A stretch of 64,000 nt of DNA from a virus. Within the stretch, counting starts at the first letter, position 1. Each line of letters starts with the position of its first letter. Of this stretch, positions 11,387 to 55,698 are shown one piece after another. The notes under the pieces are model-generated. The model was not told where the DNA came from. It saw only the letters and a program-made list of their open reading frames with translations, and did no database searches. Position numbers and translations under genes: made by a program. Where the stretch lies: positions 108,233 to 172,232 of IMG/VR virus record IMGVR_UViG_3300043446_003177; one strand, given 5' to 3'.

Positions 11387-11820
11387 AACTAATGAGCAAA
11401 AATTTTGATGAACTAAATGAGACGTTTAACGTCGAGAGTTCTATTGTCGAAACAGAAAAAGATGACTCCGCAATAAAACCTATTGAAGAAAATAGTAAAG
11501 TTGATGATATTCAAAAGGATTATGAATATACTAGAGGAAATTTATATTCTTTAATTGAAAAAGGACAAGAAGCTATAAATGGAATTTTAGAACTTGCTCA
11601 AGAAAGTGAAATGCCCAGAGCTTATGAAGTTGCTGGGCAATTAATAAAAAGTGTTGCTGATGCAACAGATAAATTAATGGACTTACAAAAGAAGTTAAAA
11701 GATATTGATGAAAGTAAATCCTCCAGAGGACCAACTACAGTAAATAATGCTCTTTTTGTAGGATCTACTGCGGATTTAGCAAAATTTTTAAAACAACAAT
11801 CGCAAAATGAAAACGTTTAA
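11383..11820 (+). CDS. gp16: Terminase small subunit gp16
   Basis: DYEYTRGNLY...PRAYEVAGQLIK...NNALFVGSTADL. Confidence 0.93.
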   Translation: MKLMSKNFDELNETFNVESSIVETEKDDSAIKPIEENSKVDDIQKDYEYTRGNLYSLIEKGQEAINGILELAQESEMPRAYEVAGQLIKSVADATDKLMDLQKKLKDIDESKSSRGPTTVNNALFVGSTADLAKFLKQQSQNENV

Positions 11821-11962
11821 AGAATTTCAAGAAGAGTGGAGCAATAAATATAAGAAGAGTATTAATTGCTCAAATCCTAAAGGATTTTCTCAACGCGCCC
11901 ATTGTGCCGGTAGAAAGAAAAGAGCAAAAGGTGAACAGACTAAATCAAAACCAGTTGAATAA
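11807..11962 (+). CDS. 51-aa basic peptide with capsid-targeting-like N-terminus (MKTFKEFQEEWSNKYKKSINCSNPKGFSQRAHCAGRKKRAKGEQTKSKPVE); not in ORF track
   Basis: Fills the gap between gp16 and the next gene; TAATG coupling to 11962. Confidence 0.75.
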   Translation: MKTFKEFQEEWSNKYKKSINCSNPKGFSQRAHCAGRKKRAKGEQTKSKPVE

Positions 11963-13698
11963 TGCCCAAGATAAAGTCCCATAAAACAGTTGAACAAATT
12001 GCAAAGAAGCATCGCCTTGATGTTTCTTTCATACAGAAGCAACTTGATATGGGAGAACCCATTGAACATGAGCATACAAAAGATCATGAATTAGCGATGG
12101 ATATTGCTCTTCAACATCTTGATGAAATTCCAGATTATTATACTCGATTAAAAAAAATGGAGGCATCCGCCAAAAAAGAACATAAAAAATTTAAAGATGT
12201 TACTGAAGAGGGTCTTCGTGATTGGTTTGGAAAATCAAAATCAAAAGATGGAAAAGCGGGTTGGGTAAACGTTGTAACTGGCGGAACATGCGCTAGTGAT
12301 GAACCTGGAGAAGGAGTTCCAAAATGTGTCTCTTCTTCAAAAAGAGCGAGTATGACTCCAGCAGAAAGACGTTCTGCATCAAGAAGAAAAAAAGCGGCAG
12401 ATTCTGGACAACAAGAAAAATCTGGTGCTGCAAAACCAACCTATGTTTCTACAGATTCACCTAAAAAGAAAATGAAAGAAGAAATGGAAGTACAAGAAGA
12501 AAAAGATAAACCAAGTAAAGGTAGTGGTAAAAAAGATGCTTGCTATCATAAGGTAAAGGCAAGATATGATGTTTGGCCTAGTGCATATGCATCTGGTGCA
12601 TTGGTCAAATGTCGCAAAAAAGGTGCTGCAAATTGGGGTACAAAATCCGAAGCGGTAGAAGAAGAAAGATTTTGTCCATTATGCGATAAAAGGGAAAAAA
12701 GATCAGAATGTTCTTATGGGGAAGAAGCTTGGGATAAAGTATCAATTAAAGATCATGAATATTCTATGGCTAGATCAGAAATAAAGAACATTATTGATGC
12801 TGCTAAAAGACTTGAAAAGAAAGTAGCAAAAGGTGAAGGATCTCTGGAAGCTTGGGTACAATCAAAAATTACTAAGGCTGCAGACTACATTGATACTGCT
12901 GCAGATTATGTTGCAAGTGGAGAAATGGAAGAAGCATGTTGGACTGGATATAAGCAAGTGGGGATGAAAAAGAAAGGAAAAAAAATTGTTCCTAATTGTG
13001 TTCCAGCATCCGAAGAAAAACTAGTAGATAAAATTGTAAACGAAATTATTTCTGAAAAGCAAAATTCAAGTACAATTGAAGATGCAAATGGAAACAGTTT
13101 TGTTGAAGTAGTTAACTTGATTGAACCGGAACCAATCAAAGGATTTAAATCACAAATTGAAGAGGCAACACGTTTGCAGTCACAAACTGGAAATATAGTT
13201 GCAGTAACTATATCTTGGAGAGGAAAATATTATGCAATGCGTATGTTTTTCCCTCAGGCAAAAGTTCCATCAAGAAAAGAAATTAATGATGAGATTAAAA
13301 AAGTATATCCAAATTCTATAGTTGTTGCTCACTCAGTTTCCGAGTTTACTCCAGGACAACCCTTAATCCAAACTGGAGTTCAGGGTGGAAGTTACGGAAA
13401 TCCAGGTCCAAGCAAAAATTATGTAAAAACAATGGGTGAAGACTGGCAGTCAGTCAATCGCAAAGATAAAACTGATGGTCTCAGTCAAAAAGCTGTAAAT
13501 GCTTATCGTCGTGAGAATCCAGGTTCAAAACTTCAAACTGCAGTAACAGAAAAGAACCCAACAGGTAAAAGAGCATCTCGTCGCAAATCATTCTGCTCAA
13601 GGATGAGTGGTATGAAAAAAAGATTAACTTCCGCAAAAACTGCAAACGATCCAGATTCCAGAATCAACAAAGCCCTTCGTCGTTGGAACTGCAACTAA
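11962..13698 (+). CDS. Modular basic protein, probable internal head polyprotein (DUF5661-like N-terminal, DUF5872-like and DUF6321-like modules)
   Basis: Discrete Lys/Arg/Cys-rich modules separated by EE/xE motifs; lies in late operon. Confidence 0.7.
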   Translation: MPKIKSHKTVEQIAKKHRLDVSFIQKQLDMGEPIEHEHTKDHELAMDIALQHLDEIPDYYTRLKKMEASAKKEHKKFKDVTEEGLRDWFGKSKSKDGKAGWVNVVTGGTCASDEPGEGVPKCVSSSKRASMTPAERRSASRRKKAADSGQQEKSGAAKPTYVSTDSPKKKMKEEMEVQEEKDKPSKGSGKKDACYHKVKARYDVWPSAYASGALVKCRKKGAANWGTKSEAVEEERFCPLCDKREKRSECSYGEEAWDKVSIKDHEYSMARSEIKNIIDAAKRLEKKVAKGEGSLEAWVQSKITKAADYIDTAADYVASGEMEEACWTGYKQVGMKKKGKKIVPNCVPASEEKLVDKIVNEIISEKQNSSTIEDANGNSFVEVVNLIEPEPIKGFKSQIEEATRLQSQTGNIVAVTISWRGKYYAMRMFFPQAKVPSRKEINDEIKKVYPNSIVVAHSVSEFTPGQPLIQTGVQGGSYGNPGPSKNYVKTMGEDWQSVNRKDKTDGLSQKAVNAYRRENPGSKLQTAVTEKNPTGKRASRRKSFCSRMSGMKKRLTSAKTANDPDSRINKALRRWNCN

Positions 13699-14015
13699 TG
13701 AAATCATTCAATCAATTTCTATCAGAAGCTGTAAACATTGCCGGAGATTTTAACGGCAATCTATACATTAATAGTTCTGAAATGCAATCAGAACAGGTTA
13801 AAGAATCTTTTTTTGCTGATGTTGTATGGGAAGGGAGACTTTATCGCCTTGAAGTTGAAGGTAGCATGATGAATAAAACAGAACTAGCTGAACAACTTCA
13901 AGATCAATATCCAGGGGTAATTGTTCACAATATTTACCCACAACAACCATCAAGTTCATTAAAAATTAAAAATACGCAAAGATACCAACCAGAAAGATTG
14001 ACTTGGAGTGACTAA
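13698..14015 (+). CDS. Hypothetical protein starting MKSFNQFLSEA (capsid-targeting-like); paralog of a module of the upstream protein
   Basis: ATG at 13698 overlaps upstream TAA; WEGRLY...YPG similar to WRGKYY...YPN in upstream ORF. Confidence 0.75.
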   Translation: MKSFNQFLSEAVNIAGDFNGNLYINSSEMQSEQVKESFFADVVWEGRLYRLEVEGSMMNKTELAEQLQDQYPGVIVHNIYPQQPSSSLKIKNTQRYQPERLTWSD

Positions 14016-14017
14016 TT

Positions 14018-15349: not shown

Positions 15350-15355
15350 ATTATT

Positions 15356-16999
15356 ATGAGTGAAGTCTATCTTGGTAATCCAAATCTTAAAAAAGCAAAT
15401 ACCCAAATTGAATTTACAGAAGATCAAATTATTGAATTCTTAAAATGTAAAGAAGATCCGGTTTACTTTGCAAAAAATTATGTAAAGATTGTAACTCTTG
15501 ATTATGGTCTACAACCATTTAAACCATATCATTTCCAAGAGAAGTTAATTAATAATTTCCATAAGAACAGATTTAATATCTGTAAGATGCCTCGACAGAC
15601 AGGTAAATCCACTACAGTAGTGTCTTTCCTGCTCCACTATGCCGTCTTTAACGATAATGTTAACATAGGTATCCTAGCAAACAAAGCAGCGACCGCACGG
15701 GAGCTCCTGGATAGGTTACAGACTGCATATGAAAACCTACCCAAGTGGATGCAGCAAGGAATTATAGCTTGGAACAGAGGATCTCTTGAACTTGAAAATG
15801 GGTCAAAAATATTAGCGGCATCCACCTCTGCTTCCACAGTTCGTGGTATGTCTTTTAATATTATTTTCTTGGACGAATTTGCATTCGTCCCAAATCATAT
15901 TGCCGACGATTTTTTTAGTTCGGTATATCCAACAATTTCTTCAGGTAAGTCCACAAAGGTTATAATCGTTTCAACTCCAAAGGGGATGAATCATTTTTAC
16001 CGAATGTGGCATGATGCTGAAAGGGGTAAAAATGAATATGTATTTACCGACGTTCACTGGAGCGAAGTTCCAGGAAGAGATGAAAAGTGGAAAGAGCAGA
16101 CAATTGCAAACACATCAGAACAGCAATTCAAAGTTGAGTTTGAATGTGAATTTTTAGGATCAGTAGATACTCTGATTGCGCCAAGCAAAATAAGAAATTT
16201 AGTATATGATCACCCAAGAAAAAGAAACGCAGGATTGGATGTTTATATAGATCCGCAAGAAAATCACGATTATATTATTACAGTTGATGTTGCAAGAGGA
16301 GTTGGAAGTGATTACTCAGCTTTTGTAGTTGTGGATATAACACAGTTTCCACATAAGGTAGTTGCAAAATACAGGAATAATGAAATCAAACCTATGCTAT
16401 TTCCGAGTATCATTCACGAAGTAGCAAAGAGTTATAATAATGCTTATATTTTATGCGAAGTTAATGATGTTGGAGATCAAGTTGCTAGTATTATCCAATA
16501 TGATTTGGAATATAATAATTTACTCATGTGTTCTATGAGAGGAAGAGCCGGTCAAATTGTCGGACAAGGATTTTCTGGAAAGAAAACTCAACTCGGAGTT
16601 AAGATGTCCAAGACTGTTAAAAAGGTTGGATGCCTTAATTTAAAGACAATGATTGAGGAAGATAAGTTACTCTTCAACGACTATGAAATTATAAGCGAAC
16701 TAACAACATTCATTCAAAAACATAATTCCTTTGAAGCGGAAGAAGGATGTAATGATGATTTGGCGATGTGCCTGGTCATTTATGCTTGGTTAGTTGCTCA
16801 AGATTATTTTAAAGAATTAACTGATCAAGACGTTAGAAAAAGATTATACGAGGAGCAAAAAAATCAAATAGAACAAGATATGTCTCCGTTTGGATTTATT
16901 ATTGATGGTACAGAAGCCGATAGTTTTATAGATGCTGATGGAGACAGATGGTTTGCTGACGAATATGGAGATAGATCTTACATGTGGGAATATAGGTAA
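15356..16999 (+). CDS. gp17: Terminase large subunit gp17
   Basis: Walker A PRQTGKST, Walker B IIFLDEFAF, nuclease DVARG and DDLAM. Confidence 0.98.
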   Translation: MSEVYLGNPNLKKANTQIEFTEDQIIEFLKCKEDPVYFAKNYVKIVTLDYGLQPFKPYHFQEKLINNFHKNRFNICKMPRQTGKSTTVVSFLLHYAVFNDNVNIGILANKAATARELLDRLQTAYENLPKWMQQGIIAWNRGSLELENGSKILAASTSASTVRGMSFNIIFLDEFAFVPNHIADDFFSSVYPTISSGKSTKVIIVSTPKGMNHFYRMWHDAERGKNEYVFTDVHWSEVPGRDEKWKEQTIANTSEQQFKVEFECEFLGSVDTLIAPSKIRNLVYDHPRKRNAGLDVYIDPQENHDYIITVDVARGVGSDYSAFVVVDITQFPHKVVAKYRNNEIKPMLFPSIIHEVAKSYNNAYILCEVNDVGDQVASIIQYDLEYNNLLMCSMRGRAGQIVGQGFSGKKTQLGVKMSKTVKKVGCLNLKTMIEEDKLLFNDYEIISELTTFIQKHNSFEAEEGCNDDLAMCLVIYAWLVAQDYFKELTDQDVRKRLYEEQKNQIEQDMSPFGFIIDGTEADSFIDADGDRWFADEYGDRSYMWEYR

Positions 17000-22216: not shown

Positions 22217-22774
22217 ATGGCGCATAAACCAGTAGGTGCGGGAATTTCATTATCAACAACTGCCGTTTCAGCATTAACCACTTCATTTTCCGTTCAATCA
22301 AATGTTCTGAGAGTGACTGCAGTTAATGCTGGGGCATTTGTTGCAATTGGAACAAACCCAACCGCATCAATTACAGATTATTATATTCCTGCAGGAAAAT
22401 CAGAAACTCTTGCTTTAACAAAAGCATCACAAAGAGTTGCTGGTATAACAACCGGAACAACTACTATTATTGATTTTCCAGAAGGAACTCAAACTCCTTT
22501 TGTTGCTGGAGATTATGTTACCTTAACAGTCACTGGGCAATCTTATTACAATTTTACCCATGTTCCTGTTATTTCCGTAAATAATACTGCATCTTATGAT
22601 GGGTATTTTTCAAAGAGAATTGTCGTAGATTATAACTCAAGTGGTATTGTAACCGCATTTTCACCAACAACATCATATGCTGATTTGAGAGGATCTATCA
22701 GAGTTGCTGCTAGAACCGAAGGTGGATCTGGAACCGTTTATATTCAACAAGTACAAATTTCAGGACAAGCATAA
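22217..22774 (+). CDS. Putative virion structural protein (beta-rich)
   Basis: Late promoter 22181-22187; Thr/Ser/Val-rich; between portal and protease. Confidence 0.65.
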   Translation: MAHKPVGAGISLSTTAVSALTTSFSVQSNVLRVTAVNAGAFVAIGTNPTASITDYYIPAGKSETLALTKASQRVAGITTGTTTIIDFPEGTQTPFVAGDYVTLTVTGQSYYNFTHVPVISVNNTASYDGYFSKRIVVDYNSSGIVTAFSPTTSYADLRGSIRVAARTEGGSGTVYIQQVQISGQA

Positions 22775-23424
22775 TGAAACTTATTACCGAAGAAATCGAA
22801 TCAGTAGAAGTTCTTACCGAAACGGTCAACGGTAAGAAGACTCTTTATATCCAAGGACCTTTCCTTCAAACTGAAGTTGTAAACAGAAACGGTAGAATGT
22901 ATCGTTTACCTGTTATGGAAAGAGAGGTAAAGCGTTACACTGAACAATATGTAAATAAGGGTCGTGCTCTTGGAGAGCTTGGACACCCTGATGGTCCTAC
23001 TGTAAATCTAGATCGAGTCTCCCATAAAATTGTTTCACTTCACCGCGAAGGAAATAATTTTATTGGTAAGGCGCAAATCCTCTCAACTCCAATGGGAAAA
23101 ATTGCAGAGTCACTTTTAAAAGAAGGAGTTACTCTTGGCGTTTCCTCTCGTGGTATTGGTTCAGTCAAATCTACTCGTGAAGGTTTTACTGAAGTTGGCG
23201 AAGATTTCATGCTAGCAACTGCTGCTGATATCGTTGCCGATCCTTCTGCTCCTGACGCTTTTGTTCAGGGAATCATGGAAGGAAAGGAATGGGTTTGGGA
23301 AGGTGGAATGCTCAGAGAAAGAGCAGCACAAAAAACTTATAAGAGAATTAATACTCTTGTAGACCAAAAACGTCTGGAAGAGCATAAATTGAATCTATTC
23401 AATGAGTTTTTAAACTCATTGTAA
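22774..23424 (+). CDS. gp21: Prohead core protease gp21
   Basis: ALGELGHP, GVSSRGIGS, DIVADPSAPDAFV. Confidence 0.97.
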   Translation: MKLITEEIESVEVLTETVNGKKTLYIQGPFLQTEVVNRNGRMYRLPVMEREVKRYTEQYVNKGRALGELGHPDGPTVNLDRVSHKIVSLHREGNNFIGKAQILSTPMGKIAESLLKEGVTLGVSSRGIGSVKSTREGFTEVGEDFMLATAADIVADPSAPDAFVQGIMEGKEWVWEGGMLRERAAQKTYKRINTLVDQKRLEEHKLNLFNEFLNSL

Positions 23425-23483: not shown

Positions 23484-24674
23484 ATGTCTCGTGGAGATTT
23501 ACAAGAAATGGAAGTAGGCACTAAGCAATCCAAAACCGCTGTCAATGCAAATGCAAAAGCGGGAGATCCAATGCCTAAACTAGCAGCAGGTGCCGTTGCT
23601 GGGCAAACAGGTGGTTGGGAAGATCTGGGTGGTCCAGATCCAACAAACTATCGTCCAGATGATGACTCGGCTAAATTAAAAACACCTGGAGCAACTCTTA
23701 AGCAAGTTAGAGATGTTGTTAATAAGGGTGCTAAAGCTGCAGATCCAACTCCTCATATGAAAGGTGCTGTTAAAGAAGAAACCGAAGAAGATGAGGAAGA
23801 TCTAATTGTAGACGAAGAGGATCTTGAAATCTCTGATGACGAAGAAGTAGTAGAAGAAGAAGCTTCTGAAAAAGAAGAAAAGGGTGAGAAGGAAGAGAAG
23901 GGTAAGAAGGATAAGGAAGAAGAAGAGGAAGAGGAAGAGATGGAAGAAGAGTTTAACATCGATGAAGATGTTAATGCTCTCTTAGATGGCGAAGAGCTCT
24001 CTGAGGAATTCCAAGAGAAAGCACGTATCATTTTTGAAGCTGCTCTTCGTTCAAAAGTTTCTGATATTAAAGAAACTCTTGAAGAGCAGTATGAGCAAAG
24101 ACTTTCTGAAGAAATTTCAGAAATCAAATCAGTTCTTCAAGAAAGAATTGATTCATACTTAGAGTATGTTGCTGACGAATGGTTTGAGGAAAATGCTCTA
24201 GCAATTGAGCATGGAATCAAAACCGAGATTACCGAGTCATTCCTCCAAGGAATGAAGGGTCTTTTTGAAGAGCATTATGTAACAATCCCTGAAGATAGAT
24301 ATGATGTTTTAGAGAGCATGGTAGACAAACTTGATGAAATGGAGACAAAACTCAACGAGCAGATTGAGAGAAATATTTCCCTAAACAAGCGCCTCGCAGA
24401 GTCGGTTGCTGACGGAATCTTAGATCAAGTCTCTGAGGGCCTTGCTGCTACTCAGAAAGAAAAGCTCGCTTCACTTGCCGAAAGTGTTGAGTTTGAAAGT
24501 GAAGAGGAATATCGTGAAAAACTGGAGACTTTAAAGGAATCATATTTTCCTTCCAGAACAGTATCTCCATCAGCTAAAACAGAAACCCTCTCAGAGGGTT
24601 TAGACAGAGCACCTGAAAATGTAACAGGTTCGATGGCGGCTTATCTGAGAACGCTTTCATCTTTTAGCAAATAA
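23484..24674 (+). CDS. gp22: Prohead scaffolding protein gp22
   Basis: Very acidic coiled coil, LSEEFQEKARIIFEAA, YLEYVADEW; TATAAATA 23435-23442. Confidence 0.95.
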   Translation: MSRGDLQEMEVGTKQSKTAVNANAKAGDPMPKLAAGAVAGQTGGWEDLGGPDPTNYRPDDDSAKLKTPGATLKQVRDVVNKGAKAADPTPHMKGAVKEETEEDEEDLIVDEEDLEISDDEEVVEEEASEKEEKGEKEEKGKKDKEEEEEEEEMEEEFNIDEDVNALLDGEELSEEFQEKARIIFEAALRSKVSDIKETLEEQYEQRLSEEISEIKSVLQERIDSYLEYVADEWFEENALAIEHGIKTEITESFLQGMKGLFEEHYVTIPEDRYDVLESMVDKLDEMETKLNEQIERNISLNKRLAESVADGILDQVSEGLAATQKEKLASLAESVEFESEEEYREKLETLKESYFPSRTVSPSAKTETLSEGLDRAPENVTGSMAAYLRTLSSFSK

Positions 24675-24724: not shown

Positions 24725-26155
24725 ATGTTCCATTCCGAGCATCTGCAGGAAAAGTGGGCACCACTCCTCAACTATGAGGGTCTTGATCAAATCAAAGATT
24801 CGCATCGTAGAGCGGTAACCGCAGTCCTGCTAGAAAACCAAGAAAGATTTTTAAGAGAGCAATCTGCATTTGAAAGTGCAGGTTCATTCCTAACCGAAAC
24901 TCCAGTAAACAGCACTGCTTCAAGTTCAACTGCAGGTTTCGGTGGTAGCGCACAAGGATTTAGCGCAGGTCCTACCGCAGGTTTCGACCCTGTTCTGATC
25001 TCTCTGATCAGACGCTCAATGCCTAACCTTGTTGCTTATGATCTCGCTGGCGTTCAACCAATGAACGGTCCAACCGGCCTGATCTTTGCAATGCGTTCAC
25101 GCTACAACAACCAGAGCGGTACAGAAGCATTCTATAACGAAGTTGATACCGCATGGTCTGGTCAGCCATTTGGCCGCGATAACGAAGATGGATTTACCAA
25201 CGGTGCCGTTGGTATGGGTACTACTGCACAAAATGGTACAAACCCATCCGTTCTGAACGCAGCTGGTGCAGCTGGTGGCGACTACAATGTTGGTCAGGGT
25301 ATGCGTACTGACCAGGCTGAAGCACTTGATAGTGGTGCGGACGCTTTCAACCAGATGGCGTTCTCAATCGAGAAGGTTACCGTTACTGCAAAGTCACGCG
25401 CCCTCAAGGCTGAGTACACCTTAGAACTCGCACAAGACCTCAAGGCAATCCACGGTCTGAATGCTGAAGCGGAACTCGCAAATATTCTCTCAACTGAGAT
25501 TCTTGCTGAGATCAACCGCGAAGTCATCAGAACCATCTACAAGGTTGCTGAACAGGGTGCTGCTCAAAACACCGCTACTGCTGGTGTATTTGACCTCGAC
25601 GTTGATTCAAACGGTCGTTGGTCGGTTGAGAAGTTCAAGGGTCTACTCTTCCAGATCGAGAGAGATGCAAACGCAATCGCTCAAAGAACTCGTAGAGGAA
25701 AGGGCAACATCATCATGTGCTCTGCTGACGTTGCTTCAGCACTGACCATGGCTGGTGTTCTCGATTACACCCCTGCGCTCAATGCTAATCTGTCTGTTGA
25801 TGATACCGGTAATACTTTTGCTGGTACTCTGATGGGCAAATTCCGCGTCTACATTGACCCATATGCTGCTAACCTGACTTCAGGTAACGCTGCTCCAACA
25901 GGTGGTAACCAGTACTACGTTGTTGGTTATAAGGGTTCTTCACCTTATGACGCAGGTCTCTTCTATTGCCCATATGTTCCTCTCCAAATGGTACGTGCCG
26001 TTGGTGAGAACAGCTTCCAGCCTAAGATCGGCTTTAAGACCCGTTATGGAATGGTTGCAAACCCATTCGCTGAGGGTACTACCCAGGGTCAAGGCAATCT
26101 CACTGTTAACGCAAACCGTTACTACAGAAGAGTTGCTGTGAAAAATTTAATGTGA
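24725..26155 (+). CDS. gp23: Major capsid protein gp23
   Basis: GVQPMNGPTGLIFAMR, SRALKAEYTLELAQDLKAIHGL, FYCPYVPL, FQPKIGFKTRYG. Confidence 0.99.
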   Translation: MFHSEHLQEKWAPLLNYEGLDQIKDSHRRAVTAVLLENQERFLREQSAFESAGSFLTETPVNSTASSSTAGFGGSAQGFSAGPTAGFDPVLISLIRRSMPNLVAYDLAGVQPMNGPTGLIFAMRSRYNNQSGTEAFYNEVDTAWSGQPFGRDNEDGFTNGAVGMGTTAQNGTNPSVLNAAGAAGGDYNVGQGMRTDQAEALDSGADAFNQMAFSIEKVTVTAKSRALKAEYTLELAQDLKAIHGLNAEAELANILSTEILAEINREVIRTIYKVAEQGAAQNTATAGVFDLDVDSNGRWSVEKFKGLLFQIERDANAIAQRTRRGKGNIIMCSADVASALTMAGVLDYTPALNANLSVDDTGNTFAGTLMGKFRVYIDPYAANLTSGNAAPTGGNQYYVVGYKGSSPYDAGLFYCPYVPLQMVRAVGENSFQPKIGFKTRYGMVANPFAEGTTQGQGNLTVNANRYYRRVAVKNLM

Positions 26156-35129: not shown

Positions 35130-35154
35130 GGAGGTCTTTTGACCTCCTTTTTTT
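35130..35154 (+). terminator. Intrinsic terminator followed by a -10 box (TATAAT 35156-35161)
   Basis: GGAGGTC-TTTT-GACCTCC plus T7. Confidence 0.8.
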
Positions 35155-35182
35155 GTATAATGATTTCATACGCATCAGACCT

Positions 35183-37333: not shown

Positions 37334-37349
37334 ATAAATACTCAAAAGA

Positions 37350-38477
37350 GTGCCTATAAAGATGCAACTTCCAGAAGAACTTCTTGATGAGAGAACCCTG
37401 ATGAAAATGAAAGGATCCAAGAAATCAGGCACTATGCCTATTCCTGGATCCGAAGGTGCTGCACGAAAAGATGTTGCTCGTGCTGGATTTAGAAAAAAGG
37501 GTCCAATTCAAGATCCTAAAGTTGAGAAAAGTGGAAAAGATGTTCCTGTTTGGGTAAGAACTCATAAATCTCCTGCTGATTATGCTGCTCATACAGCAAA
37601 GCAAAAACATAAAGAAGGTGAAAAAACTGATACTAAAGAATTAAGAAAACAGTTTCATAAAACTGGAGCTAAAAAAGATAGTGAAGTTCATGATATTACT
37701 GTAGGATCCCCCAAATCAAAAGTAAAAGATCCTGGGCAAAGGGCAAGACAATTTGTCGGTGCTTTAAAAGATGTTAAAGATAAAATGAAGGAAAAGAAAG
37801 GAGTTGCTACAAATACTCCAACTGCTATTGATTCCACTAAAACAAAAAATAAAAAAAATAGAAGTGGGGAAGAAGGTGCAGAGCAAAGAGGTAGAATTTA
37901 TAAGAAACTCGGAATGGGCGAAAGAAATCCAAAGACAGGAGTACAAATGGCAAAATTAGGAGAATGCAAGTCTTTCAGTCAGTTCATGTTAGAGTGTAAT
38001 TCTATTCAAGAAACATCTCTGAACAGAATTAGATCTAAGTCGGAAAAAGGCGGAATGGCTATCATGTCTGCTCAACGTGGTGATAAATCTAAGTCAGAAA
38101 ATAAAGCACGTTCTAAGCAACTTGAGAAGGATGTGAGGGGCGCTGGTCTTCCCGGACCCACCAAAGTTAAAGGTAGATATACTGAAAATCCAGGAACACC
38201 TCAAGAGAAAAAAGTAGGAGAAAAGTCCCACGTCATTACTCCTGGTAAGAAAGGCAAAAGAAAGTTTAAAAAGGCAATCGAAAAATTAGGTAAGAAGTAT
38301 GATCAAGACTCTGTTCTCATCCAACGTAAGAAGGGTGGGAGTGCAACTCTTAAAGGAACATCAAAAACATCTTGGCCTGGAAAGGGAAAGAATGTTAAAA
38401 TTGGTAAAATGAAACCTGGACGTACAGGTGAGTTTGATACTAAGGTAAAAAACAAAACATTTACAGTTGAGGATTGA
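37350..38477 (+). CDS. Late two-module basic protein; C-terminal domain resembles phage SAM lyase (T3 gp0.3 / DUF3293-like)
   Basis: ATAAATA at 37334-37340; motifs SAQR, EN..R, GRYTE, GEKS, YDQDSVL. Confidence 0.6.
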   Translation: MPIKMQLPEELLDERTLMKMKGSKKSGTMPIPGSEGAARKDVARAGFRKKGPIQDPKVEKSGKDVPVWVRTHKSPADYAAHTAKQKHKEGEKTDTKELRKQFHKTGAKKDSEVHDITVGSPKSKVKDPGQRARQFVGALKDVKDKMKEKKGVATNTPTAIDSTKTKNKKNRSGEEGAEQRGRIYKKLGMGERNPKTGVQMAKLGECKSFSQFMLECNSIQETSLNRIRSKSEKGGMAIMSAQRGDKSKSENKARSKQLEKDVRGAGLPGPTKVKGRYTENPGTPQEKKVGEKSHVITPGKKGKRKFKKAIEKLGKKYDQDSVLIQRKKGGSATLKGTSKTSWPGKGKNVKIGKMKPGRTGEFDTKVKNKTFTVED

Positions 38478-38478
38478 G

Positions 38479-38673
38479 ATGGCAAAAAAACTTGATAAAT
38501 TTCCATTTGATCATGTAGTAAAATATGATACTCAAGAAGTATGGATTAAGTGCAGCAGTGTTACTACTGCTATGGGACTTCCTACACTTGTAAATCAATA
38601 TTATCCTGGGTATAAAGCAAAGATTGGGACACAGGAGCAACTTGACCAACTTCGCAACCAGTTGGTGAACTGA
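38479..38673 (+). CDS. Small hypothetical protein
   Basis: MAKKLDKFPFDHVV...; fills gap. Confidence 0.65.
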   Translation: MAKKLDKFPFDHVVKYDTQEVWIKCSSVTTAMGLPTLVNQYYPGYKAKIGTQEQLDQLRNQLVN

Positions 38674-38679
38674 CCATTC

Positions 38680-38701
38680 GGGGGGTTCTGCCCCCCTTTT
38701 T
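38680..38701 (+). terminator. Intrinsic terminator followed by a -10 box (TATAAT 38707-38712)
   Basis: GGGGGG-TTCTG-CCCCCC plus T5. Confidence 0.7.
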
Positions 38702-38744
38702 GGTTGTATAATATGTCTGTTGAAACAAACCACCTAACTACATT

Positions 38745-44216: not shown

Positions 44217-44651
44217 ATGACTAACCTTTCGCGCTATACGACTGCAGATCTTCCTACTCTGCTCGATAAGATCACTCGCAATAGTATTGGAATGGATGAA
44301 TACTTTGACCGTCTTTTCCATCTACACGAAACCACTACGAATTATCCACCATATAATCTTGTCCAAGTCAGTAATGTGGAATCACGACTTGAACTTGCTC
44401 TTGCTGGATTTAAGAAGAAGGAGGTTTATGTCTACACGCAAGATGGTAAACTCTTTGTCGAAGGTCAAAAAGAAGATAAAGAAACGGAGTCCAACTATGT
44501 CCACAAAGGTTTGGCTCAACGGAGTTTTAAGAGAGCGTGGACACTCTCTGATGATACGGAAGTACGATCAGTTGATTTTGAGGATGGGCTTTTAACTATT
44601 ACTCTTGGTAGGATTGTGCCGGAACATCACAAACGAAAAGACTATCTATAA
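44217..44651 (+). CDS. hsp20: Small heat shock protein Hsp20
   Basis: NYPPYNL, LELALAGF, HKGLAQRSFKRAWTL, FEDGLLTI. Confidence 0.96.
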   Translation: MTNLSRYTTADLPTLLDKITRNSIGMDEYFDRLFHLHETTTNYPPYNLVQVSNVESRLELALAGFKKKEVYVYTQDGKLFVEGQKEDKETESNYVHKGLAQRSFKRAWTLSDDTEVRSVDFEDGLLTITLGRIVPEHHKRKDYL

Positions 44652-44665
44652 ATAAAAATAAAAAA

Positions 44666-44821
44666 ATGAAAACGTTTCGGGAATTTATTTCTATAATAAA
44701 TGAAATGAAAGGTGATTTTGGTTCGGATGTAAAACCACCAAAACCAAAATGTTATGGTAAAACTACAACATATGCTATGCTTCCCGGAAAACGTGTTTGT
44801 AAATTTAAACGTAAAAGATAA
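44666..44821 (+). CDS. 51-aa late basic peptide with capsid-targeting-like N-terminus (MKTFREFISIINEMKGDFGSDVKPPKPKCYGKTTTYAMLPGKRVCKFKRKR), not in track
   Basis: TATAAATA 44647-44654 directly upstream. Confidence 0.7.
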   Translation: MKTFREFISIINEMKGDFGSDVKPPKPKCYGKTTTYAMLPGKRVCKFKRKR

Positions 44822-45525: not shown

Positions 45526-48020
45526 TGAGATTTTATACCAATGTGCAAATGATCGGGAATCAATTTCTCGTCCGTGGTTATGAAAATGGTAGACATGTAA
45601 TGTTTAAAGAGGAGTATTCTCCTACTTTATTTGTACCTTCTAAAAAAGAAACAAAATATAAAACTCTAGAGGGTGAGAGTGTTGAACCTATCAATCCTGG
45701 TATGGTTCGTGATTGTAGAGAATTTTATAAGAAGTATGAGAATGTAGATGGATTTAAAATCTATGGAAATGATCGATATGTGTCTCAGTACATATCAGAT
45801 AAGTATCCAGAAGATGAAATTAAATTTGATATTACAAAAATTAAATTAACCACTATCGATATTGAGGTTGCATCGGAAAATGGATTTCCTGATGTAGAAT
45901 CTTGTGCTGAAGAAATTCTTACAATTACTATTCAAGATTATGCAACCAAGAAAATAACTACTTGGGGAGTCAAACCTTTTAAAAACAATAATCCAAATGT
46001 AACTTATATTGAATGCTCTGGGGAGCATCATTTGCTTTCAAATTTTATTGATTATTGGGATGCTAATATTCCAGAAGTTATTACTGGTTGGAATATTCAA
46101 TTCTACGATATTCCGTATATTTGCGGGAGACTTGGTAGAATTTTAGGGGAAAAGCAGATGAAAAGATTTTCTCCATGGGGATTGGTGACTCAAGATGAAA
46201 TTTTTGTAAATGGTAGAAAGCAAACTGTATATGATGTTGGTGGGATCACCCAGTTAGATTACTTAGATCTTTATAAGAAATTTACTTATAAAGCTCAAGA
46301 ATCTTATCGACTAGATCATATTGCTAATGTTGAACTTGGACAAAAGAAACTAGATCACTCCGAGTTTGATACTTTTAAAGACTTCTATACTAAAGGATGG
46401 CAGAAGTTTGTAGAATATAACATCGTTGACGTAGAACTTGTTGACCGTCTGGAAGACAAGATGAAACTGATTGAACTTGCAATCACGATGGCTTATGACG
46501 CAAAAGTAAACTATGGAGATATCTTTTATCAGGTTAGGATGTGGGATAATATTATCTACAACTACCTCAAGAAGAGAAATATTGTTATCCCTCCAAAAGA
46601 GAGATCGGTGAAAAATGAAAAGTATGCTGGTGCTTATGTAAAAGAACCAAGACCTGGCGTGTATGATTGGGTTGTTAATTTTGACCTTAACTCCCTATAT
46701 CCACACCTTATTATGATGTACAACATTTCTCCAGAAACTCTTTTGGATGAGAGGCATCCATCTGTAACTGTAGATAAAATTCTCAACCGAGAAATTAGTT
46801 TTGAACTTTATAAGGATTATGCAGTTTGTGCTAACGGCGCAATGTATCGTAAGGATGTTCGTGGATTTCTCCCGGAACTGATGGAAAAGATCTACAAAGA
46901 TCGCACCATCTATAAGAAGAAAATGCTTGCAGCGAAGCAAGAGTATGAAAAGACAAAGAATAAAGAATTAATTAAAGAAATTGCTCGCTGCAACAACATT
47001 CAAATGGCGAGAAAGATTCAACTTAACTCTGCTTATGGTGCTATCGGTAATCAATATTTCCGCTACTATAAATTAGCAAATGCTGAGGCAATTACTTTGT
47101 CTGGTCAAGTTGCAATCCGTTGGATTGAAGAAAAAATGAATAACTACTTCAATAAAGTTTTTAAAACTGAGGATGTTGATTATGTTATTGCTTCAGATAC
47201 TGACTCCATTTATCTTAATATGGGTCCTCTGGTTGAAACTGTATTCAAGGGAAGAGAGAAAACTACTGAAGGCATTGTTTCGTTCCTTGATAAGGTCTGT
47301 CAGGTGGAACTTGAAAAGTATATTGAAAGTTCTTACCAAGAACTGGCTGAGTATGTAAATGCTTATGACCAAAAAATGTTCATGAAGCGCGAGAATATTG
47401 CTGATCGTGGTATTTGGACTGCTAAAAAACGGTACATTCTTAATGTATGGGATAGTGAGGGTGTTCGTTATGAGGAACCCAAACTCAAAATCATGGGCAT
47501 TGAGGCAGTCAAGTCATCTACTCCAGCACCTTGTCGGAAGATGATTAAAGATGGACTTAAATTGATGATGAGTGGAACTGAAGATGATGTAATCGACTTT
47601 ATTGATAAGAGTCGTGAAAAGTTCAAAACTCTTCCACCAGAAGAGATTGCTTTTCCTCGTACAGCTTCTGATGTTCGTAAATATACAGCATCATCTACAA
47701 TCTATAGTAAAGGAACACCAATTCATATTCGCGGAGCACTTCTCTTTAATCACCACATTAAAGAGAAAAAGTTAACCAATAAATATTCTCTCATTGCAAA
47801 TGGTGAAAAGGTTAAGTTTATCTTTTTAAAGAAACCAAATACAATTCAAGAAAATGTTATTGCATTTATTCAAGATTTTCCAAAAGAACTTGGATTAGAT
47901 AAGTACATTGATTATGATACTCAATTTGAGAAAGCATTTCTAGAACCTTTAAAAATTATTCTAGACTCTATTGGGTGGTCAGTTGAAAAGAAAATTAGTC
48001 TTGAAGATTTTTTCTCATGA
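45525..48020 (+). CDS. gp43: Family B DNA polymerase gp43
   Basis: DIEV exonuclease motif, FDLNSLYP, KIQLNSAYG, SDTDS. Confidence 0.98.
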   Translation: MRFYTNVQMIGNQFLVRGYENGRHVMFKEEYSPTLFVPSKKETKYKTLEGESVEPINPGMVRDCREFYKKYENVDGFKIYGNDRYVSQYISDKYPEDEIKFDITKIKLTTIDIEVASENGFPDVESCAEEILTITIQDYATKKITTWGVKPFKNNNPNVTYIECSGEHHLLSNFIDYWDANIPEVITGWNIQFYDIPYICGRLGRILGEKQMKRFSPWGLVTQDEIFVNGRKQTVYDVGGITQLDYLDLYKKFTYKAQESYRLDHIANVELGQKKLDHSEFDTFKDFYTKGWQKFVEYNIVDVELVDRLEDKMKLIELAITMAYDAKVNYGDIFYQVRMWDNIIYNYLKKRNIVIPPKERSVKNEKYAGAYVKEPRPGVYDWVVNFDLNSLYPHLIMMYNISPETLLDERHPSVTVDKILNREISFELYKDYAVCANGAMYRKDVRGFLPELMEKIYKDRTIYKKKMLAAKQEYEKTKNKELIKEIARCNNIQMARKIQLNSAYGAIGNQYFRYYKLANAEAITLSGQVAIRWIEEKMNNYFNKVFKTEDVDYVIASDTDSIYLNMGPLVETVFKGREKTTEGIVSFLDKVCQVELEKYIESSYQELAEYVNAYDQKMFMKRENIADRGIWTAKKRYILNVWDSEGVRYEEPKLKIMGIEAVKSSTPAPCRKMIKDGLKLMMSGTEDDVIDFIDKSREKFKTLPPEEIAFPRTASDVRKYTASSTIYSKGTPIHIRGALLFNHHIKEKKLTNKYSLIANGEKVKFIFLKKPNTIQENVIAFIQDFPKELGLDKYIDYDTQFEKAFLEPLKIILDSIGWSVEKKISLEDFFS

Positions 48021-48175
48021 AAAATTACACTGTTTTTTGGTATGAGCATTGTGGTGGAAAGATTCACAAAAGATCTAAAGAATTTGAAGAAGAAAGTAAA
48101 GCAACTTGGTTTGCAAACCAAATGAAAAGATGGTATGATTGGGTTACTTGTATAGAGACTAAAGATTTTAACTAG
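48017..48175 (+). CDS. 52-aa hypothetical protein (MKNYTVFWYEHCGGKIHKRSKEFEEESKATWFANQMKRWYDWVTCIETKDFN), not in track
   Basis: ATGA overlap with gp43 stop; fills gap to uvsX. Confidence 0.6.
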   Translation: MKNYTVFWYEHCGGKIHKRSKEFEEESKATWFANQMKRWYDWVTCIETKDFN

Positions 48176-48184
48176 AGGTTATTG

Positions 48185-51701: not shown

Positions 51702-51717
51702 CCCGAAAGGGTTTTTT

Positions 51718-51790: not shown

Positions 51791-51820
51791 TCTAAATACT
51801 TGAAAGAGTATTCTAATCTT

Positions 51821-52666: not shown

Positions 52667-52701
52667 ATTAAAGAATAAATATAGGTATATCAACACAAAA
52701 T

Positions 52702-53946
52702 ATGAAAAGTTTTTCACGATTTTTATCTGAGGCGCAGTCTTCTCAAGCCGTAATGCAAGCAAAAAGGCTTGGTTTGGTTGGTGATGGTCATGGTGGGTGG
52801 TACGATAAAAATGGTGAATTTGTTGCAAAAACTGAAGGTAGTAAATTAAAGTTTTATAATAAGAATCAAGTTCCTGGGCAGCAAGATCCTCCTCAAGATA
52901 GAACTGCTGCTAATCAACAACCAGTTGCAACTCAGGTTCAAGCACCACAGCAAGAACAACCACCTGCAGAAGAACCAAAGAAAGATAAAGGAATTCTAAC
53001 CGTTGCTTTTGGGCGTTTTAATCCTCCAACAACAGGGCATGAGAAACTTCTAGATAAAGTTGCTAATGTTGCTGGAAAGGGTGAATACAAAATTTATCCA
53101 TCAAGATCTAACGATAAGAAAAAGAATCCACTAGATCCTGATACTAAAATTTCAATCATGCGTCAGATGTATCCGAAGCATGGTGAAAGAATTGTGAATG
53201 ATGCAAACTCAAAGACAATCTTTGATGTATTGAAGCAAGCACATGCAGATGGATATTCTGGAGTTAATATTGTAGTTGGTTCTGATCGTCAAGCAGAATT
53301 TGAAAAACTTGCAACTCAGTATAACGGCGAACTCTATGATTTTAAGGATTTGAATGTAGTTTCTGCTGGAGAAAGAGATCCTGATGCTGAGGGTGTGGAA
53401 GGAATGTCTGCATCCAAACTCCGCAAGGCAGCAGCAGAAGGAGACTTTAAAACATTTAGGTCAGGAGTTCCTTCCACACTTGATGATGAATCTGCAAAGA
53501 AAATATACAATACCATCCGCAAATCTATGGGTGTTAAAGAAGGATGGGACTTGTGGGAAATTGCCCCTAAATTTGATTGGAAGAATTTGAGAGAGAATTA
53601 TATCTCTCAGAATATATTTAAGATGGGGCAACTAGTTGAAAATTTAAATACGGGTCTTATTGGGAAGATAATTCGTAGAGGAACAAATTATTTAATTTGT
53701 GTAACTGAAGATAATATAATGTTTAAATCTTGGATTAAAGATGTAATGGAATATACTGAAGTTAAAATGGATACTCCAATGAGAGATAAAAAACATCCAA
53801 ATACGTTGGTTGGTACTCTAGGTGCATTTAAGCATTATGCAAAAATGACTACTGGTGCAATAGGAACTGGAAAAGAAAATCTGACTTCAAGTTCAAAGGC
53901 GTATGGTATTAATTTCATAAATAAGTATAAGGCAAATAAGAAGTAA
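52702..53946 (+). CDS. Cytidyltransferase-like (HIGH-family) nucleotidyltransferase with capsid-targeting-like N-terminus
   Basis: FGRFNPPTTGHEKL, VVGSDR, MSASKLR; ATAAATA 52675-52681. Confidence 0.88.
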   Translation: MKSFSRFLSEAQSSQAVMQAKRLGLVGDGHGGWYDKNGEFVAKTEGSKLKFYNKNQVPGQQDPPQDRTAANQQPVATQVQAPQQEQPPAEEPKKDKGILTVAFGRFNPPTTGHEKLLDKVANVAGKGEYKIYPSRSNDKKKNPLDPDTKISIMRQMYPKHGERIVNDANSKTIFDVLKQAHADGYSGVNIVVGSDRQAEFEKLATQYNGELYDFKDLNVVSAGERDPDAEGVEGMSASKLRKAAAEGDFKTFRSGVPSTLDDESAKKIYNTIRKSMGVKEGWDLWEIAPKFDWKNLRENYISQNIFKMGQLVENLNTGLIGKIIRRGTNYLICVTEDNIMFKSWIKDVMEYTEVKMDTPMRDKKHPNTLVGTLGAFKHYAKMTTGAIGTGKENLTSSSKAYGINFINKYKANKK

Positions 53947-53955
53947 AGTATTGCA

Positions 53956-55698
53956 ATGTCCACAAATCCTCTAAATGACATTTCTGCAGTTTACATGCAA
54001 GAAGTGCTAAAACCACAATTGGGTAAAAATGTTGCTAAAGCAAAACCCGAAAAGTCTGAAAAAGGTGGAGAGTCTGGTCCAAAGGATGCGTCAGAATCTT
54101 CTGCTAAAAGGATTCGTCAGGCAGTTTACGACATTCGTTATAGAGCAAGAAGGGAAGAAATTCCTCTACCCCAAGCATATAACCAATACATGTCTCACAC
54201 CACAATGAGTGGTCCAGAAAAATCTGAAGTTAAATCGAAACTTGGCGAAGAAAAAGTTTTTGAGGAAACTGAGGATAAAAAGTTTCAAGTTAGAGTGACT
54301 GATAAAAATTCTGGTAAGTCCTATGTTCGCATGGCTACTAGAGAAAAGATTAATCAACTTCGTGCTAACCCAAATATTTCTTCTGTTGAAATGACGAAGT
54401 ATGGAACTCCTTATGAGGGTGAGAAGAAAAGAGGTAAGCAAACTGCATCAGTAACTTCTGGTAAAGGTTTAGATCCCGTTGGTCATGAAGACAAGGATAT
54501 TGATAATGATGGCGATCATGATAAGAGTGATAAGTATCTTTTAAATCGTAGAAAGGCTCGTGGTGCTGCAATTCAAAAGAGAGTTGCAAAGGAAGAGTAC
54601 TCAAACTGGAGAGAAGATCTTTTTGAGATTGTGGATAAAATTAAGAAAGAAAAAGATGATAAGAAAATTGTAGAAAAAAATATTAGCAATAAGATTAATG
54701 TTCATCCAAAAATGGATGAAGCCATTGAGTCTATGGGTGGTCAACTTATTGAAATGGTTGAACTTGAAGAAGGCATGACGATGAAGGACTTCAAAAAGCA
54801 AAGAAGTCGTCAGAAGCAAAAAGAAAAGAGAGCAGCAGATAAGATTGCTCCTAATCGTAGAAAGGATATTCATACTGATAGATATTCTCCTGAGAGAGCA
54901 GCAAGACATCGTGCTAATGTAGATCCAGATTTTGAAGGTAATGATGAAAGAAACTATCCTGGTGGTAAGTTAAATCCAAAGAAAGTTCGTAAGGCAAAAG
55001 CACTTGGAGAACTTGGCGAAGCAGTTCTTGATGAAAAGACTCTGACTTCTGCTGAAACCAAAAAGAAGGAAGAGATTGTAAAGTCAATGAAGAAGAGTGC
55101 AGGTGATTTTGAAAAGAGATATCCTGGACGTGGTAAAGAAGTCATGTATGCTACTGCAACAAAGCAAGCAAAAAAGGTTGCTGAAGCAGTAGGACAAATG
55201 CCCGGAAGAGAAACTACTCCTCCAGCAGGTACAACTGCCAAGCAAGATGATGTTCAGAAAAAGCAAGTAATGAATGCTGGTGAAAAGCAAAAACTTGCAA
55301 ACTTGAAAGTGATGCAACAGAAGCAACAAATGCTTCAGCGCCAAAAACTTAATCTCCAAAAGCAAGGTAAACTTCCTTTAAATGCAGAAGAGGTTGAGAT
55401 TGTTAGTGAACTCAATCGTTATGAAAAGGAAACTGGTAAAGATTTAAAAACTGGTAAACCAGTAACAAAAGGTGGAACAATGGGTGGAGATGATACTCAT
55501 TCAAAAGTAATGAGACATATGCATAAAGTTATGGGTGCTGGTAGAATGGGTGCTGGTGGAGCAATCCAACCAAGGGGTAAAAAGAAGGACAGGGGTGGAC
55601 CAACACCTGGACCTGTTCGTACTCCTGCCCAAAAAGTAGCAAAGCGTCGTGCTGATGCTCAAAGAGCACAGGACGCAATGCACTCTAGATTTGATTGA
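53956..55698 (+). CDS. Late modular basic protein (putative internal head polyprotein)
   Basis: ATAAATA 53917-53923; basic modules between EE/LxE motifs; DxDxDG motif. Confidence 0.65.
   Translation: MSTNPLNDISAVYMQEVLKPQLGKNVAKAKPEKSEKGGESGPKDASESSAKRIRQAVYDIRYRARREEIPLPQAYNQYMSHTTMSGPEKSEVKSKLGEEKVFEETEDKKFQVRVTDKNSGKSYVRMATREKINQLRANPNISSVEMTKYGTPYEGEKKRGKQTASVTSGKGLDPVGHEDKDIDNDGDHDKSDKYLLNRRKARGAAIQKRVAKEEYSNWREDLFEIVDKIKKEKDDKKIVEKNISNKINVHPKMDEAIESMGGQLIEMVELEEGMTMKDFKKQRSRQKQKEKRAADKIAPNRRKDIHTDRYSPERAARHRANVDPDFEGNDERNYPGGKLNPKKVRKAKALGELGEAVLDEKTLTSAETKKKEEIVKSMKKSAGDFEKRYPGRGKEVMYATATKQAKKVAEAVGQMPGRETTPPAGTTAKQDDVQKKQVMNAGEKQKLANLKVMQQKQQMLQRQKLNLQKQGKLPLNAEEVEIVSELNRYEKETGKDLKTGKPVTKGGTMGGDDTHSKVMRHMHKVMGAGRMGAGGAIQPRGKKKDRGGPTPGPVRTPAQKVAKRRADAQRAQDAMHSRFD

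Follow-up and report, generated by a model that had tools for sequence, protein, structure and literature searches.

Candidate T4-type capsid-targeting leaders on late proteins of a T4-like cyanophage

The capsid-targeting system of phage T4 has been known since the 1990s, and the gp22-type scaffolding core is the structure that its leaders are thought to bind. In T4, the first 10 residues of internal protein III (IPIII) suffice for incorporation, residues 4 and 7 of the leader serve targeting and residues 8 and 10 processing, the propeptides of the internal proteins (IPs) are 10–19 residues long, the protease gp21 cleaves after Glu in L/I-x-E, and the propeptide of gp23 has 65 residues (PMC9026906). 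The same review already proposes the leader as a general device of T4-like phages. Here we analyse a window of 64,000 nucleotides (nt) of viral DNA (positions 108,233 to 172,232 of IMG/VR record IMGVR_UViG_3300043446_003177, the final 64 kb of a single 172,232-bp contig) and four genes in it, A to D, whose products begin with such a leader.

We consider it likely that A to D and associated proteins are head-packaged cargo tagged with a T4-type capsid-targeting sequence. A preliminary description of the window had proposed leaders of this type on late, protease-matured, head-packaged proteins. That proposal is supported by the match to T4 at the functional positions, by a gp23-like cleavage site, by the presence of gp21 and gp22, by promoters or operon position, and by the detection by mass spectrometry of leader-bearing orthologues or analogues in virions of S-SM1, S-CREM2 and S-SCSM1. 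Megablast and tblastn placed the window among the T4-like cyanomyoviruses (Kyanoviridae), nearest to S-SRM01, S-SCSM1, SynMITS9220M01, Bellamy and S-SM2, with ~75–81% nucleotide identity in conserved genes. Its long open reading frames (ORFs) are all on the + strand.

The leaders and their match to T4

The four genes are as follows; lengths are in amino acids (aa) and a slash marks the cleavage site, predicted for the proteins of the window.
11807-11962, + strand: gene A, 51 aa, leader MKTFKEFQEE/W
13698-14015, + strand: gene B, 105 aa, leader MKSFNQFLSE/A
44666-44821, + strand: gene C, 51 aa, leader MKTFREFISIINE/M
52702-53946, + strand: gene D, 414 aa, leader MKSFSRFLSE/A

All four N-termini, which the preliminary description had placed at 11807, 13698, 44666 and 52702, are indeed there, and each is a true ORF start. 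Across the whole 172-kb genome, ATG-K-[ST]-F occurs at six sites, exclusively on the + strand; adding xxF leaves exactly genes A, B, C and D, the remaining two being a 23-codon ORF and an internal Met. With the chance expectation taken from the composition of gene N-termini, 0.008–0.018 MK[ST]FxxF starts are expected per 223 called genes (Poisson probability of at least four, ~1.5e-10). A position-specific scoring matrix was built from related leaders and applied to start codons with at least 30 codons downstream. Among the 4,590 candidate starts, B scored 31.8 bits, D 29.9, A 6.7 and C 6.0, and the runner-up −4.4. The pattern [KR]x[FY]xxF[LIMFQ]xE has 20 occurrences in six genomes (the window's own genome, four cyanophages and T4), 13 of them directly after the start Met.

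Run on the T4 genome as a control, the same DNA pattern recovered IPII and IPIII (MKTYQEFIAE/A), IPI (MKTFKEFTST...ITE/A) and gene 61.1 (MKTFKEFIKE/D). F4 and F7 are present in each of A, B, C and D; in the T4 controls, position 4 is Y or F and position 7 is F. B and D carry the processing residues (L8-S-E10/A in each), and a leader internal to a gene fusion with a SAM (S-adenosylmethionine) lyase, described below, reads M-L-E/C.

M1, K2, F4, F7 and E10 are invariant or nearly so across the families of B and D. Residues 1–60 of D, searched with phmmer against 1.84 billion representatives, gave 294 matches, nearly all starting at residue 1. Among the 150 listed matches (clusters at 50% identity), 133 bear the leader: on the targeting side, K2 is kept in 129 of these, F4 in 117 (otherwise L or Y) and F7 in all 133; on the cleavage side, position 8 is L, I or F in 128, E10 is present in 127 (95%) and position 11 is A, S or T in 120, the apparent conservation being somewhat inflated in that the query included the leader itself. 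A DNA-pattern scan of IMG/VR for MKxFxxF[L/F]xEA returned at least 119 stretches, and 79 of the 80 fetched open an ORF, with a stop in frame a few codons upstream. The products behind these leaders are of several unrelated kinds: the transferase with and without its adaptor, DUF5661 polyproteins, a ligase-like protein, a mimic of the capsid N-terminus, a basic protein that is fused in the window, and several unknowns. S-SRM01 has about ten leader-bearing genes.

Ser3 has three different codons (TCA in gene B, AGT in gene D, TCT in the internal copy), and codon choice for Phe, Leu and Glu of the leader varies freely among 78 environmental examples, which together indicate that selection acts on the peptide and not on the DNA. 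A nucleotide-level element such as a downstream box was ruled out as the cause of the shared starts because the codons vary. A signal peptide or membrane anchor was ruled out on composition.

The genes for the head assembly machinery lie in the same window, whose packaging/head module also has g18 and g19:
20293-21978, + strand: g20 (portal), Pfam Portal_T4
22774..23424, + strand: gp21 prohead core serine protease, Pfam Peptidase_S77, E 1.6e-36
23484..24674, + strand: gp22 scaffolding core protein, Pfam T4_CASP, E 3.7e-82
24725-26155, + strand: gp23 major capsid protein, Pfam Gp23
24881..24898, + strand: predicted gp23 maturation site GSFLTE58/T, identical as a hexapeptide to the site in T4 gp23, which ends in Glu65

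The gp21 of the window is the enzyme expected to remove the leaders. Its predicted site in gp23 (...SAGSFLTE58/TPVNS, for ...AFGSFLTE/AEIGG in T4) resembles, in FLTE/T, the leader ends of B (QFLSE/A) and D (RFLSE/A). This copying of the gp23 maturation site by the last four leader residues could mean that the leader serves only cleavage by gp21, as a substrate or decoy or as a switch that activates late enzymes in or near proheads, and has no part in capsid targeting; virion association would then be due to other regions, such as the GDGHGGW adaptor or DNA-binding basic parts. The occurrence of leader-like sequences internally, at module boundaries, and of a second conserved module behind the leader in transferase, kinase and nuclease-like proteins would fit such a role. 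We nevertheless think it unlikely: the targeting positions are the most conserved (F7 in 133 and F4 in 117 of the 133 listed sequences), the motif is nearly always at residue 2 and not scattered, and A, B and C have no adaptor domain.

Late-promoter motifs and the leader-bearing proteins

NATAAATA, the core of the T4-type late promoter, has 42 copies on the + strand of the whole genome against 7 on the − strand and stands ahead of nearly every head or tail gene start in the window, including g18, g20 and g22; the copy at the gp22 gene, TATAAATA, is 41 nt upstream. The claim that the leader genes are in late operons or directly behind late promoters held up; C, D and the SAM-lyase fusion each stand right behind a copy of NATAAATA, and A and B belong to the packed g16–g17 operon:
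11383-11820, + strand: g16
15356-16999, + strand: g17
44647-44654, + strand: TATAAATA, promoter motif of gene C, 11 nt before C
52674-52681, + strand: AATAAATA, promoter motif of gene D, 20 nt before D

A and B lack promoters of their own and are wedged between g16 and g17, where stop and start codons overlap; the genes of the 578-aa protein described below and of a virion structural protein of 443 aa (phrog_1645) share this interval. As for early genes, the leader motif is absent from every gene in the first 108 kb of the genome, so that the refuting condition named in the preliminary description, a motif equally common in early genes, does not apply. On promoter motifs and operon position, late expression of the leader genes is predicted.

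A would yield a basic mature peptide of 41 aa (isoelectric point (pI) 10.4) with two Cys (WSNKYKKSINCSNPKGFSQRAHCAGRKKR...). The 3' end of g16 overlaps gene A, whose own stop overlaps the start that follows (TAATG). Leaders of this type are also found on the orthologues in Bellamy (MKSFKQFQES), S-SM2 and SynMITS9220M01, and mature A recurs as an internal polyprotein module in P-TIM68, S-PRM1 and S-CAM9, behind ..MNE/G or ..AKE/G. The leaders of A and of its Bellamy orthologue fall into an F-Q-E subclass with four copies in S-SRM01. C, located between hsp20 and the DNA polymerase gene in a replication module that comprises hsp20, gp43, uvsX, gp41, mazG and primase, would likewise leave a basic mature peptide after its leader (38 aa, pI 10.3, two Cys). 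Its orthologue in S-SRM01 reads MKTFQQFMEK... from an ATG upstream of the annotated start, behind CTAAATA, and its pattern CY-G...GK.VC resembles the CW.GY module of a polyprotein encoded from 11962. A and C matched nothing in Pfam or PHROG. Two other small ORFs have related features. One is a possible fifth member in the window, with leader-like Y4, F7 and E10 and two Cys in the mature part:
48017..48175, + strand: 52 aa, MKNYTVFWYE/HCGG..., overlapping the end of the DNA polymerase gene
The other, at ~47292 in S-SRM01, encodes 67 aa that begin MKSFQEFLFE/EEK... and continue Cys-rich (CSNC...C...C).

The mature part of B is a small acidic alpha/beta domain (pI 4.8; phrog_1742). Its family comprises 1,852 clusters at 90% identity, M1, K2, S3, F7 and E10 are invariant in a 48-sequence alignment, and the leader is kept in isolates (S-RIM8 MKSYNEFISE, S-SCSM1 MKTFKQFMSE, S-SKS1 MKNFKQFLSE). 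The AlphaFold model has a mean predicted local distance difference test score (pLDDT) of 67, below 50 in the leader and ~85 in core residues 37–81, which are modelled as a beta-hairpin, a helix and a strand. Against the PDB, Foldseek found nothing at E ≤ 0.001 (top, T7 Gp2, E 0.23), and in a wide VIA-align comparison the best Z scores (4.2 for phi29 p6, 3.8 for T7 Gp2) were within the background for small beta-beta-alpha-beta units.

D consists of the leader, a conserved adaptor at ~15–54 (..RLGLxGDGHGGWYDxxGEFVAKT..), a Q/P-rich disordered linker at 57–92, an HxGH core at 97–280 and a C-terminal beta domain; AlphaFold pLDDT is ~49 in the leader, 30–39 in the linker and ~90 in the core. It matches PF01467 with 32.2 bits (cut-off 21) and phrog_395, and FGRFNPPTTGH is invariant; motif and Rossmann-like core place D in the HxGH nucleotidyl(adenylyl/cytidylyl)transferase superfamily. 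Its family is very large (at least 8,000 clusters at 90% identity). D and S-SCSM1 ORF91 share 52.7% identity along the whole of D (E 4e-152). Foldseek ranked NadD/NMNAT and PPAT as the top folds for the core (E ~3e-6). A narrower assignment as NMNAT was rejected, as TIGR00482 scored 17 bits against a cut-off of 112, no PDB sequence matched, and the fold cannot separate NadD/NMNAT from PPAT; the low TIGR00482 score and the lack of a PDB sequence match led us to file D only as an HxGH nucleotidyltransferase. The adaptor also stands behind the leader in the S-CREM2 kinase and in a nuclease-like protein. It also matches seven separate stretches of a 1008-aa metagenomic M60/enhancin-like peptidase, which suggests that it is an independent small binding domain.

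A further gene joins two cargo proteins:
37362..38477, + strand: two-cargo fusion gene behind GATAAATA, basic protein at residues 1–199 and SAM lyase part at 202–371
37968..37994, + strand: KSFSQFMLE (/C), internal leader, homologue of the leader at the N-terminus of S-CREM2 gp6

GATAAATA is 9 nt ahead of the start as read from GTG 37350, and ATG 37362 is the more likely start. Residues 1–199 are 45% identical to a 248-aa IMG/VR ORF (BLASTP, E 4e-46) that starts MKTFKEFLEE/A, the window counterpart being a degenerate MQLPEELLDE. Residues 202–371 are 55% identical to residues 1–172 of S-CREM2 gp6 (BLASTP, E 9e-52), and the S-AdoMet_lyase domain PF23780 was matched at residues 238–361 of the 375-aa reading (59.4 bits, cut-off 28, E 4.6e-16), so that the second half is classed, by domain match, as a predicted SAM lyase of the T3 SAMase / Svi3-3 type. 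The internal KSFSQFMLE, already pointed out at 37968 in the preliminary description, is real: CKSFSQFMLE aligns residue for residue with MKDFDSFLEE of gp6, which identifies it as a leader retained after gene fusion, and it probably now serves as a cut site. An in-frame ATG on the + strand at 37947, with AGGAG 5 nt upstream and 7 codons before the internal leader (MAKLGECKSF...; MAKLGECKSFSQFMLE...), means that the SAM lyase may also be made as a separate protein. The extension read from this ATG recalls S-CREM2 gp12 and S-CRM01 g128, where the leader is likewise preceded by a short N-terminal stretch. The fusion gene is flanked by a 726-aa phrog_459 'peptidase'/CobT-like protein (35153-37333, + strand) and, on the other side, a CobS-like AAA_5 ATPase (38745-39875, + strand), and the stretch around 35153-39875 has the highest G+C in the window (0.41). 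In PADLOC, neither the four proteins A to D nor the SAM-lyase fusion matched anything meaningful.

Two long basic proteins are probably additional cargo:
11962..13698, + strand: basic modular protein, 578 aa, 11 Cys, DUF5661 ... DUF6321 (Pfam and PHROG matches), no leader of its own
53956..55698, + strand: very basic late protein, 580 aa, pI 9.8, no classical leader (MSTNPLNDISAVYMQE/V)

The 11962 protein is made of DUF5661, LRDWF, KDACY, CW.GY, a B-like W.G..Y unit and DUF6321, modules that relatives carry as separate genes or in other orders. Sites of [LIM]xE type stand at its module boundaries (EMEE/A 324, QIEE/A 401, TMGE/D 493), a hydrophobic-x-Glu precedes each module in seven homologues, and DUF5661 homologues in IMG/VR directly carry the leader MKTFSQFLLE/A. 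The orthologue S-SCSM1_29 (ORF29; E 1e-63) is annotated 'virion protein'. These features fit a polyprotein that would be cut by the head protease. One segment of it, KGFKSQIEEA at residues 392–401, had earlier been counted among the leaders; the sequence is present, but homologues conserve only [IV]EE/[AS], as at a cleavage-like boundary. Homology of B to an internal module of the 11962 protein was not significant (BLASTP, E 0.21), and we therefore do not accept KGFKSQIEEA as a leader. The 53956 protein, 32 nt behind CATAAATA, has partial homology, with a common N-terminus, to S-SCSM1_92 ('virion protein', E 5e-8) and is probably further virion cargo.

Two late ORFs elsewhere in the window have related features. 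The first, at 33912-35105 (+ strand, 397 aa) behind TATAAATA, contains an EEFE.W..L.E(E)GY-like motif three times and [LIM]xE/A-type sites (NLYE/A, YLGE/A, AILE/A), has no Pfam match, and may be another processed head protein; the promoter motif is 8 nt ahead of the start as read from GTG 33900, ATG 33912 being more likely. The second, a 78-aa ORF at 57138-57374 (+ strand), has a middle part, ..TASTAGKAGFGGSAQGFDPGPTAGFDP, that copies the mature N-terminus of the phage's own gp23.

Leader-bearing proteins in the virions of relatives

Independent experiments on relatives give the proposal its strongest support. In purified S-SM1 virions, the cyanophage-core 'cytidylyltransferase' T4-GC190 was detected with 25 peptide counts, above gp21 or gp14 (Sullivan et al. 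2010, PMC3037559, Table S8); its gene starts MKKFSAFLNE/A and belongs to the same family as D. The S-CREM2 virion proteome lists 52 proteins (PMC10665884, Table 3). Leaders begin four S-CREM2 genes, the full set of leader genes in that genome: gp6 SAM hydrolase (MKDFDSFLEE), gp13 (MKDLHSFLTE), gp14 kinase (GTG start; (V)KRFDAFLTE) and gp154 cytidylyltransferase (MKNFSSFLTE), and all four are on the list (hypergeometric ~0.003, for 52 virion proteins among 221 annotated features). Another virion protein of S-CREM2, gp12, has ..LRFASFMAE/A after a short N-terminal extension. In S-SCSM1, ORF91 carries the annotation 'NMNAT (virion protein)' (PMC9602691) and starts MKSFLQFLKE/A, and its neighbours ORF90, 92 and 93 are likewise annotated virion proteins. 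One of these, the 69-aa ORF93, ends ...KKKRTFKEFLEYIE, a leader-like sequence at the C-terminus and not the N-terminus. The S-CRM01 kinase was detected in virions according to the S-CREM2 authors (PMC10665884); this gene, g130, starts MISFDQFLSE, the adjoining g129 MKKLDQFLTE and the transferase g127 MKLFNQFFKE.

Several observations weigh against head-packaged cargo, in addition to the inflation of the conservation counts given above. A reads F7-Q8-E9-E10, off the strict L/I-x-E at 8–10, and C has I-S-I at 8–10 and I-N-E at 11–13, with its first Glu at residue 13 (the T4 IPI propeptide is likewise longer, 19 residues; PMC9026906). Because A ends in FQE-E and C has no Glu before 13, we are less sure of processing in these two than in B and D. 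S-SCSM1_30, the orthologue of B, lacks a virion-protein annotation, S-PM2 has a form of the transferase without the N-terminal part, and the leader-bearing transferase of Syn9 went undetected in the 2007 Syn9 proteome, which also missed gp21, gp4, gp5, gp14 and others. Virion presence was shown in relatives; for this phage's own proteins we infer packaging.

Co-purification of abundant late proteins with virions is a caveat that the S-CREM2 authors raise themselves (PMC10665884). Leader-bearing proteins might then be abundant late cytoplasmic contaminants whose N-terminal likeness stems from a mobile 5' cassette of promoter and first codons and serves no purpose in the mature virion; late promoter and leader could spread as a unit, and some leader-bearing proteins were not detected in proteomes. 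Yet detection was independent in three phages, by different labs and methods, synonymous codon turnover with invariant residues is the mark of peptide-level selection, A and B keep the leader without a promoter of their own, and the same decapeptide logic is experimentally a targeting signal in T4 (PMC9026906). We regard co-purification as quite improbable.

Virion proteomes also cannot tell head from tail. The leader could in principle be an address for a different late structure, such as baseplate, tail or portal, or for a membrane, and not for the head interior, and A and B do adjoin the 443-aa virion structural protein and tail genes. The leader, however, is short, acidic and amphipathic, neither a signal peptide nor a transmembrane segment, and it is near-identical to the proven head-assembly signal of T4, a phage with homologous gp20–gp23; a destination outside the head seems very improbable to us. 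Together, this alternative, co-purification and a purely proteolytic role take up a clear minority of the probability, and packaging in the head remains the reading we prefer.

Proposed mechanism and comparison with known systems

For head-packaged cargo, we envisage the following course. The leader genes would be transcribed late, from NATAAATA promoters or within the g16–g17 operon, during prohead assembly. The first 9–13 residues (M-K-[STN]-F-x-x-F-[LIM]-x-E) would dock each protein on the gp22-based scaffolding core, with Phe4 and Phe7 as anchors. gp21 would cut after Glu, FL[ST]E/A mimicking the GSFLTE/T of the capsid protein, and free the mature cargo inside the shell; DNA would be packaged around it, and the cargo would exit with the DNA at infection. 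The set would comprise the NadD/PPAT-like nucleotidyltransferase D, the SAM lyase fused behind a basic protein, acidic B and the two-Cys basic A and C, with the modular basic polyproteins from 11962 and 53956, cut at [LIM]xE sites, as probable further cargo. We infer scaffold docking, cleavage after Glu, residence in heads and not in tails, ejection together with DNA, and any early function. As the preliminary description had suggested, and by analogy with T4, the cargo might act before gene expression; possible functions are SAM depletion against SAM-dependent defence, cofactor-related chemistry (D) and neutralisation of DNA charge (basic peptides).

Tentatively, and with slightly more doubt than confidence, we extend this to a reading in which the leader is a lineage-wide address label, the cargo a counter-defence or takeover kit acting before expression, the polyproteins precursors cut to basic Cys-peptides, and the internal leaders fossils of fusion that are now cut sites. 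If so, the SAM lyase could be directed against SAM-dependent restriction or BREX-type defence and a nicotinamide adenine dinucleotide (NAD)- or coenzyme A (CoA)-related adenylyltransferase against cofactor-depleting defence, with kinases and nuclease-like proteins added in relatives; and with a lineage-wide label, the injected proteome of each phage would be readable from its genome. T4-like cyanophages are among the most abundant marine viruses, and several labs have been puzzled by a SAM hydrolase, an NMNAT-like transferase and kinases in their particles, with contamination a worry. The leader offers a simple mechanistic reason for these enzymes and probably a sequence rule for predicting packaged cargo in genomes and metagenomes. 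Time-zero delivery by cyanophages, including possible pre-made counter-defence, becomes a testable question, and the T4 capsid-targeting system, a protein-delivery tool, is extended to a distant branch of the family.

The mechanism is not new, as the T4 system has long been known and its generality has been suggested in review; new, as far as the literature covered shows, are the link to cyanophages and to the enzymes in their particles, and the fused and polyprotein forms. We found no statement in the literature on a capsid-targeting leader in cyanophages, in a search that covered subscription journals poorly. The closest described virion proteins are S-CREM2 gp6, gp13, gp14 and gp154, S-SCSM1 ORF91 and S-SM1 T4-GC190, with which the window shares protein families and leaders; it differs from S-CREM2 in that its SAM lyase is fused behind another cargo gene. 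The papers on these phages (PMC10665884, PMC9602691, PMC3037559) find the enzymes in virions puzzling and say nothing of processing or of a leader for targeting.

The closest described system is that of T4 IPI, IPII and IPIII (Mullaney and Black 1996; PMC9026906, PMC3012670), which have a decapeptide of this kind directly behind Met, with K2, an aromatic residue at 4, F7, a hydrophobic residue at 8 and Glu10, and then Ala or Ser. The first seven residues, MKTFKEF, are common to gene A and T4 IPI (and 61.1), and the S-RIM8 orthologue of B (MKSYNEFISE) is alike in 7 of 10 residues to MKTYQEFIAE of T4. T4 IPs, too, are products of late genes with variable, often basic mature parts, and the gp21 protease and gp22 scaffold of the two phages are homologous. 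Unlike them, the proteins described here come from a marine cyanophage lineage and not from T-even coliphages, and the targeting role of their leaders is predicted, where that of T4 is experimental. The cyanophage cargo includes sizeable enzymes (nucleotidyltransferase and SAM lyase; in relatives, kinase and nuclease-like proteins), many of its members have, besides the leader, a conserved adaptor domain and an extended disordered linker, and its leaders also occur inside fused or polyprotein genes and include an FQE-ending subclass.

T4 61.1 has an IP-type leader (MKTFKEFIKE/D) and then a copy of the mature gp23 N-terminus. Its analogue in the window is the 78-aa gene at 57138-57374, which differs in having a gp23-propeptide-like AFRHLKE/D and not an MK.F..F leader. 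The packaged ADP-ribosyltransferase Alt of T4 is likewise a head-carried enzyme that is trimmed by gp21, ejected with the DNA and active at time zero; it differs in having its own short propeptides at both ends and no IP-type leader (PMC9026906), and its activity is unrelated. Giant phages of the phiKZ-like/SPN3US group also have many head-internal proteins, some polyprotein-like, that are cut after Glu by a gp21-like protease and ejected (PMC9026906), but their cleavage motif is S/A-x-E, no shared N-terminal decapeptide is known in them, and their lineage is unrelated.

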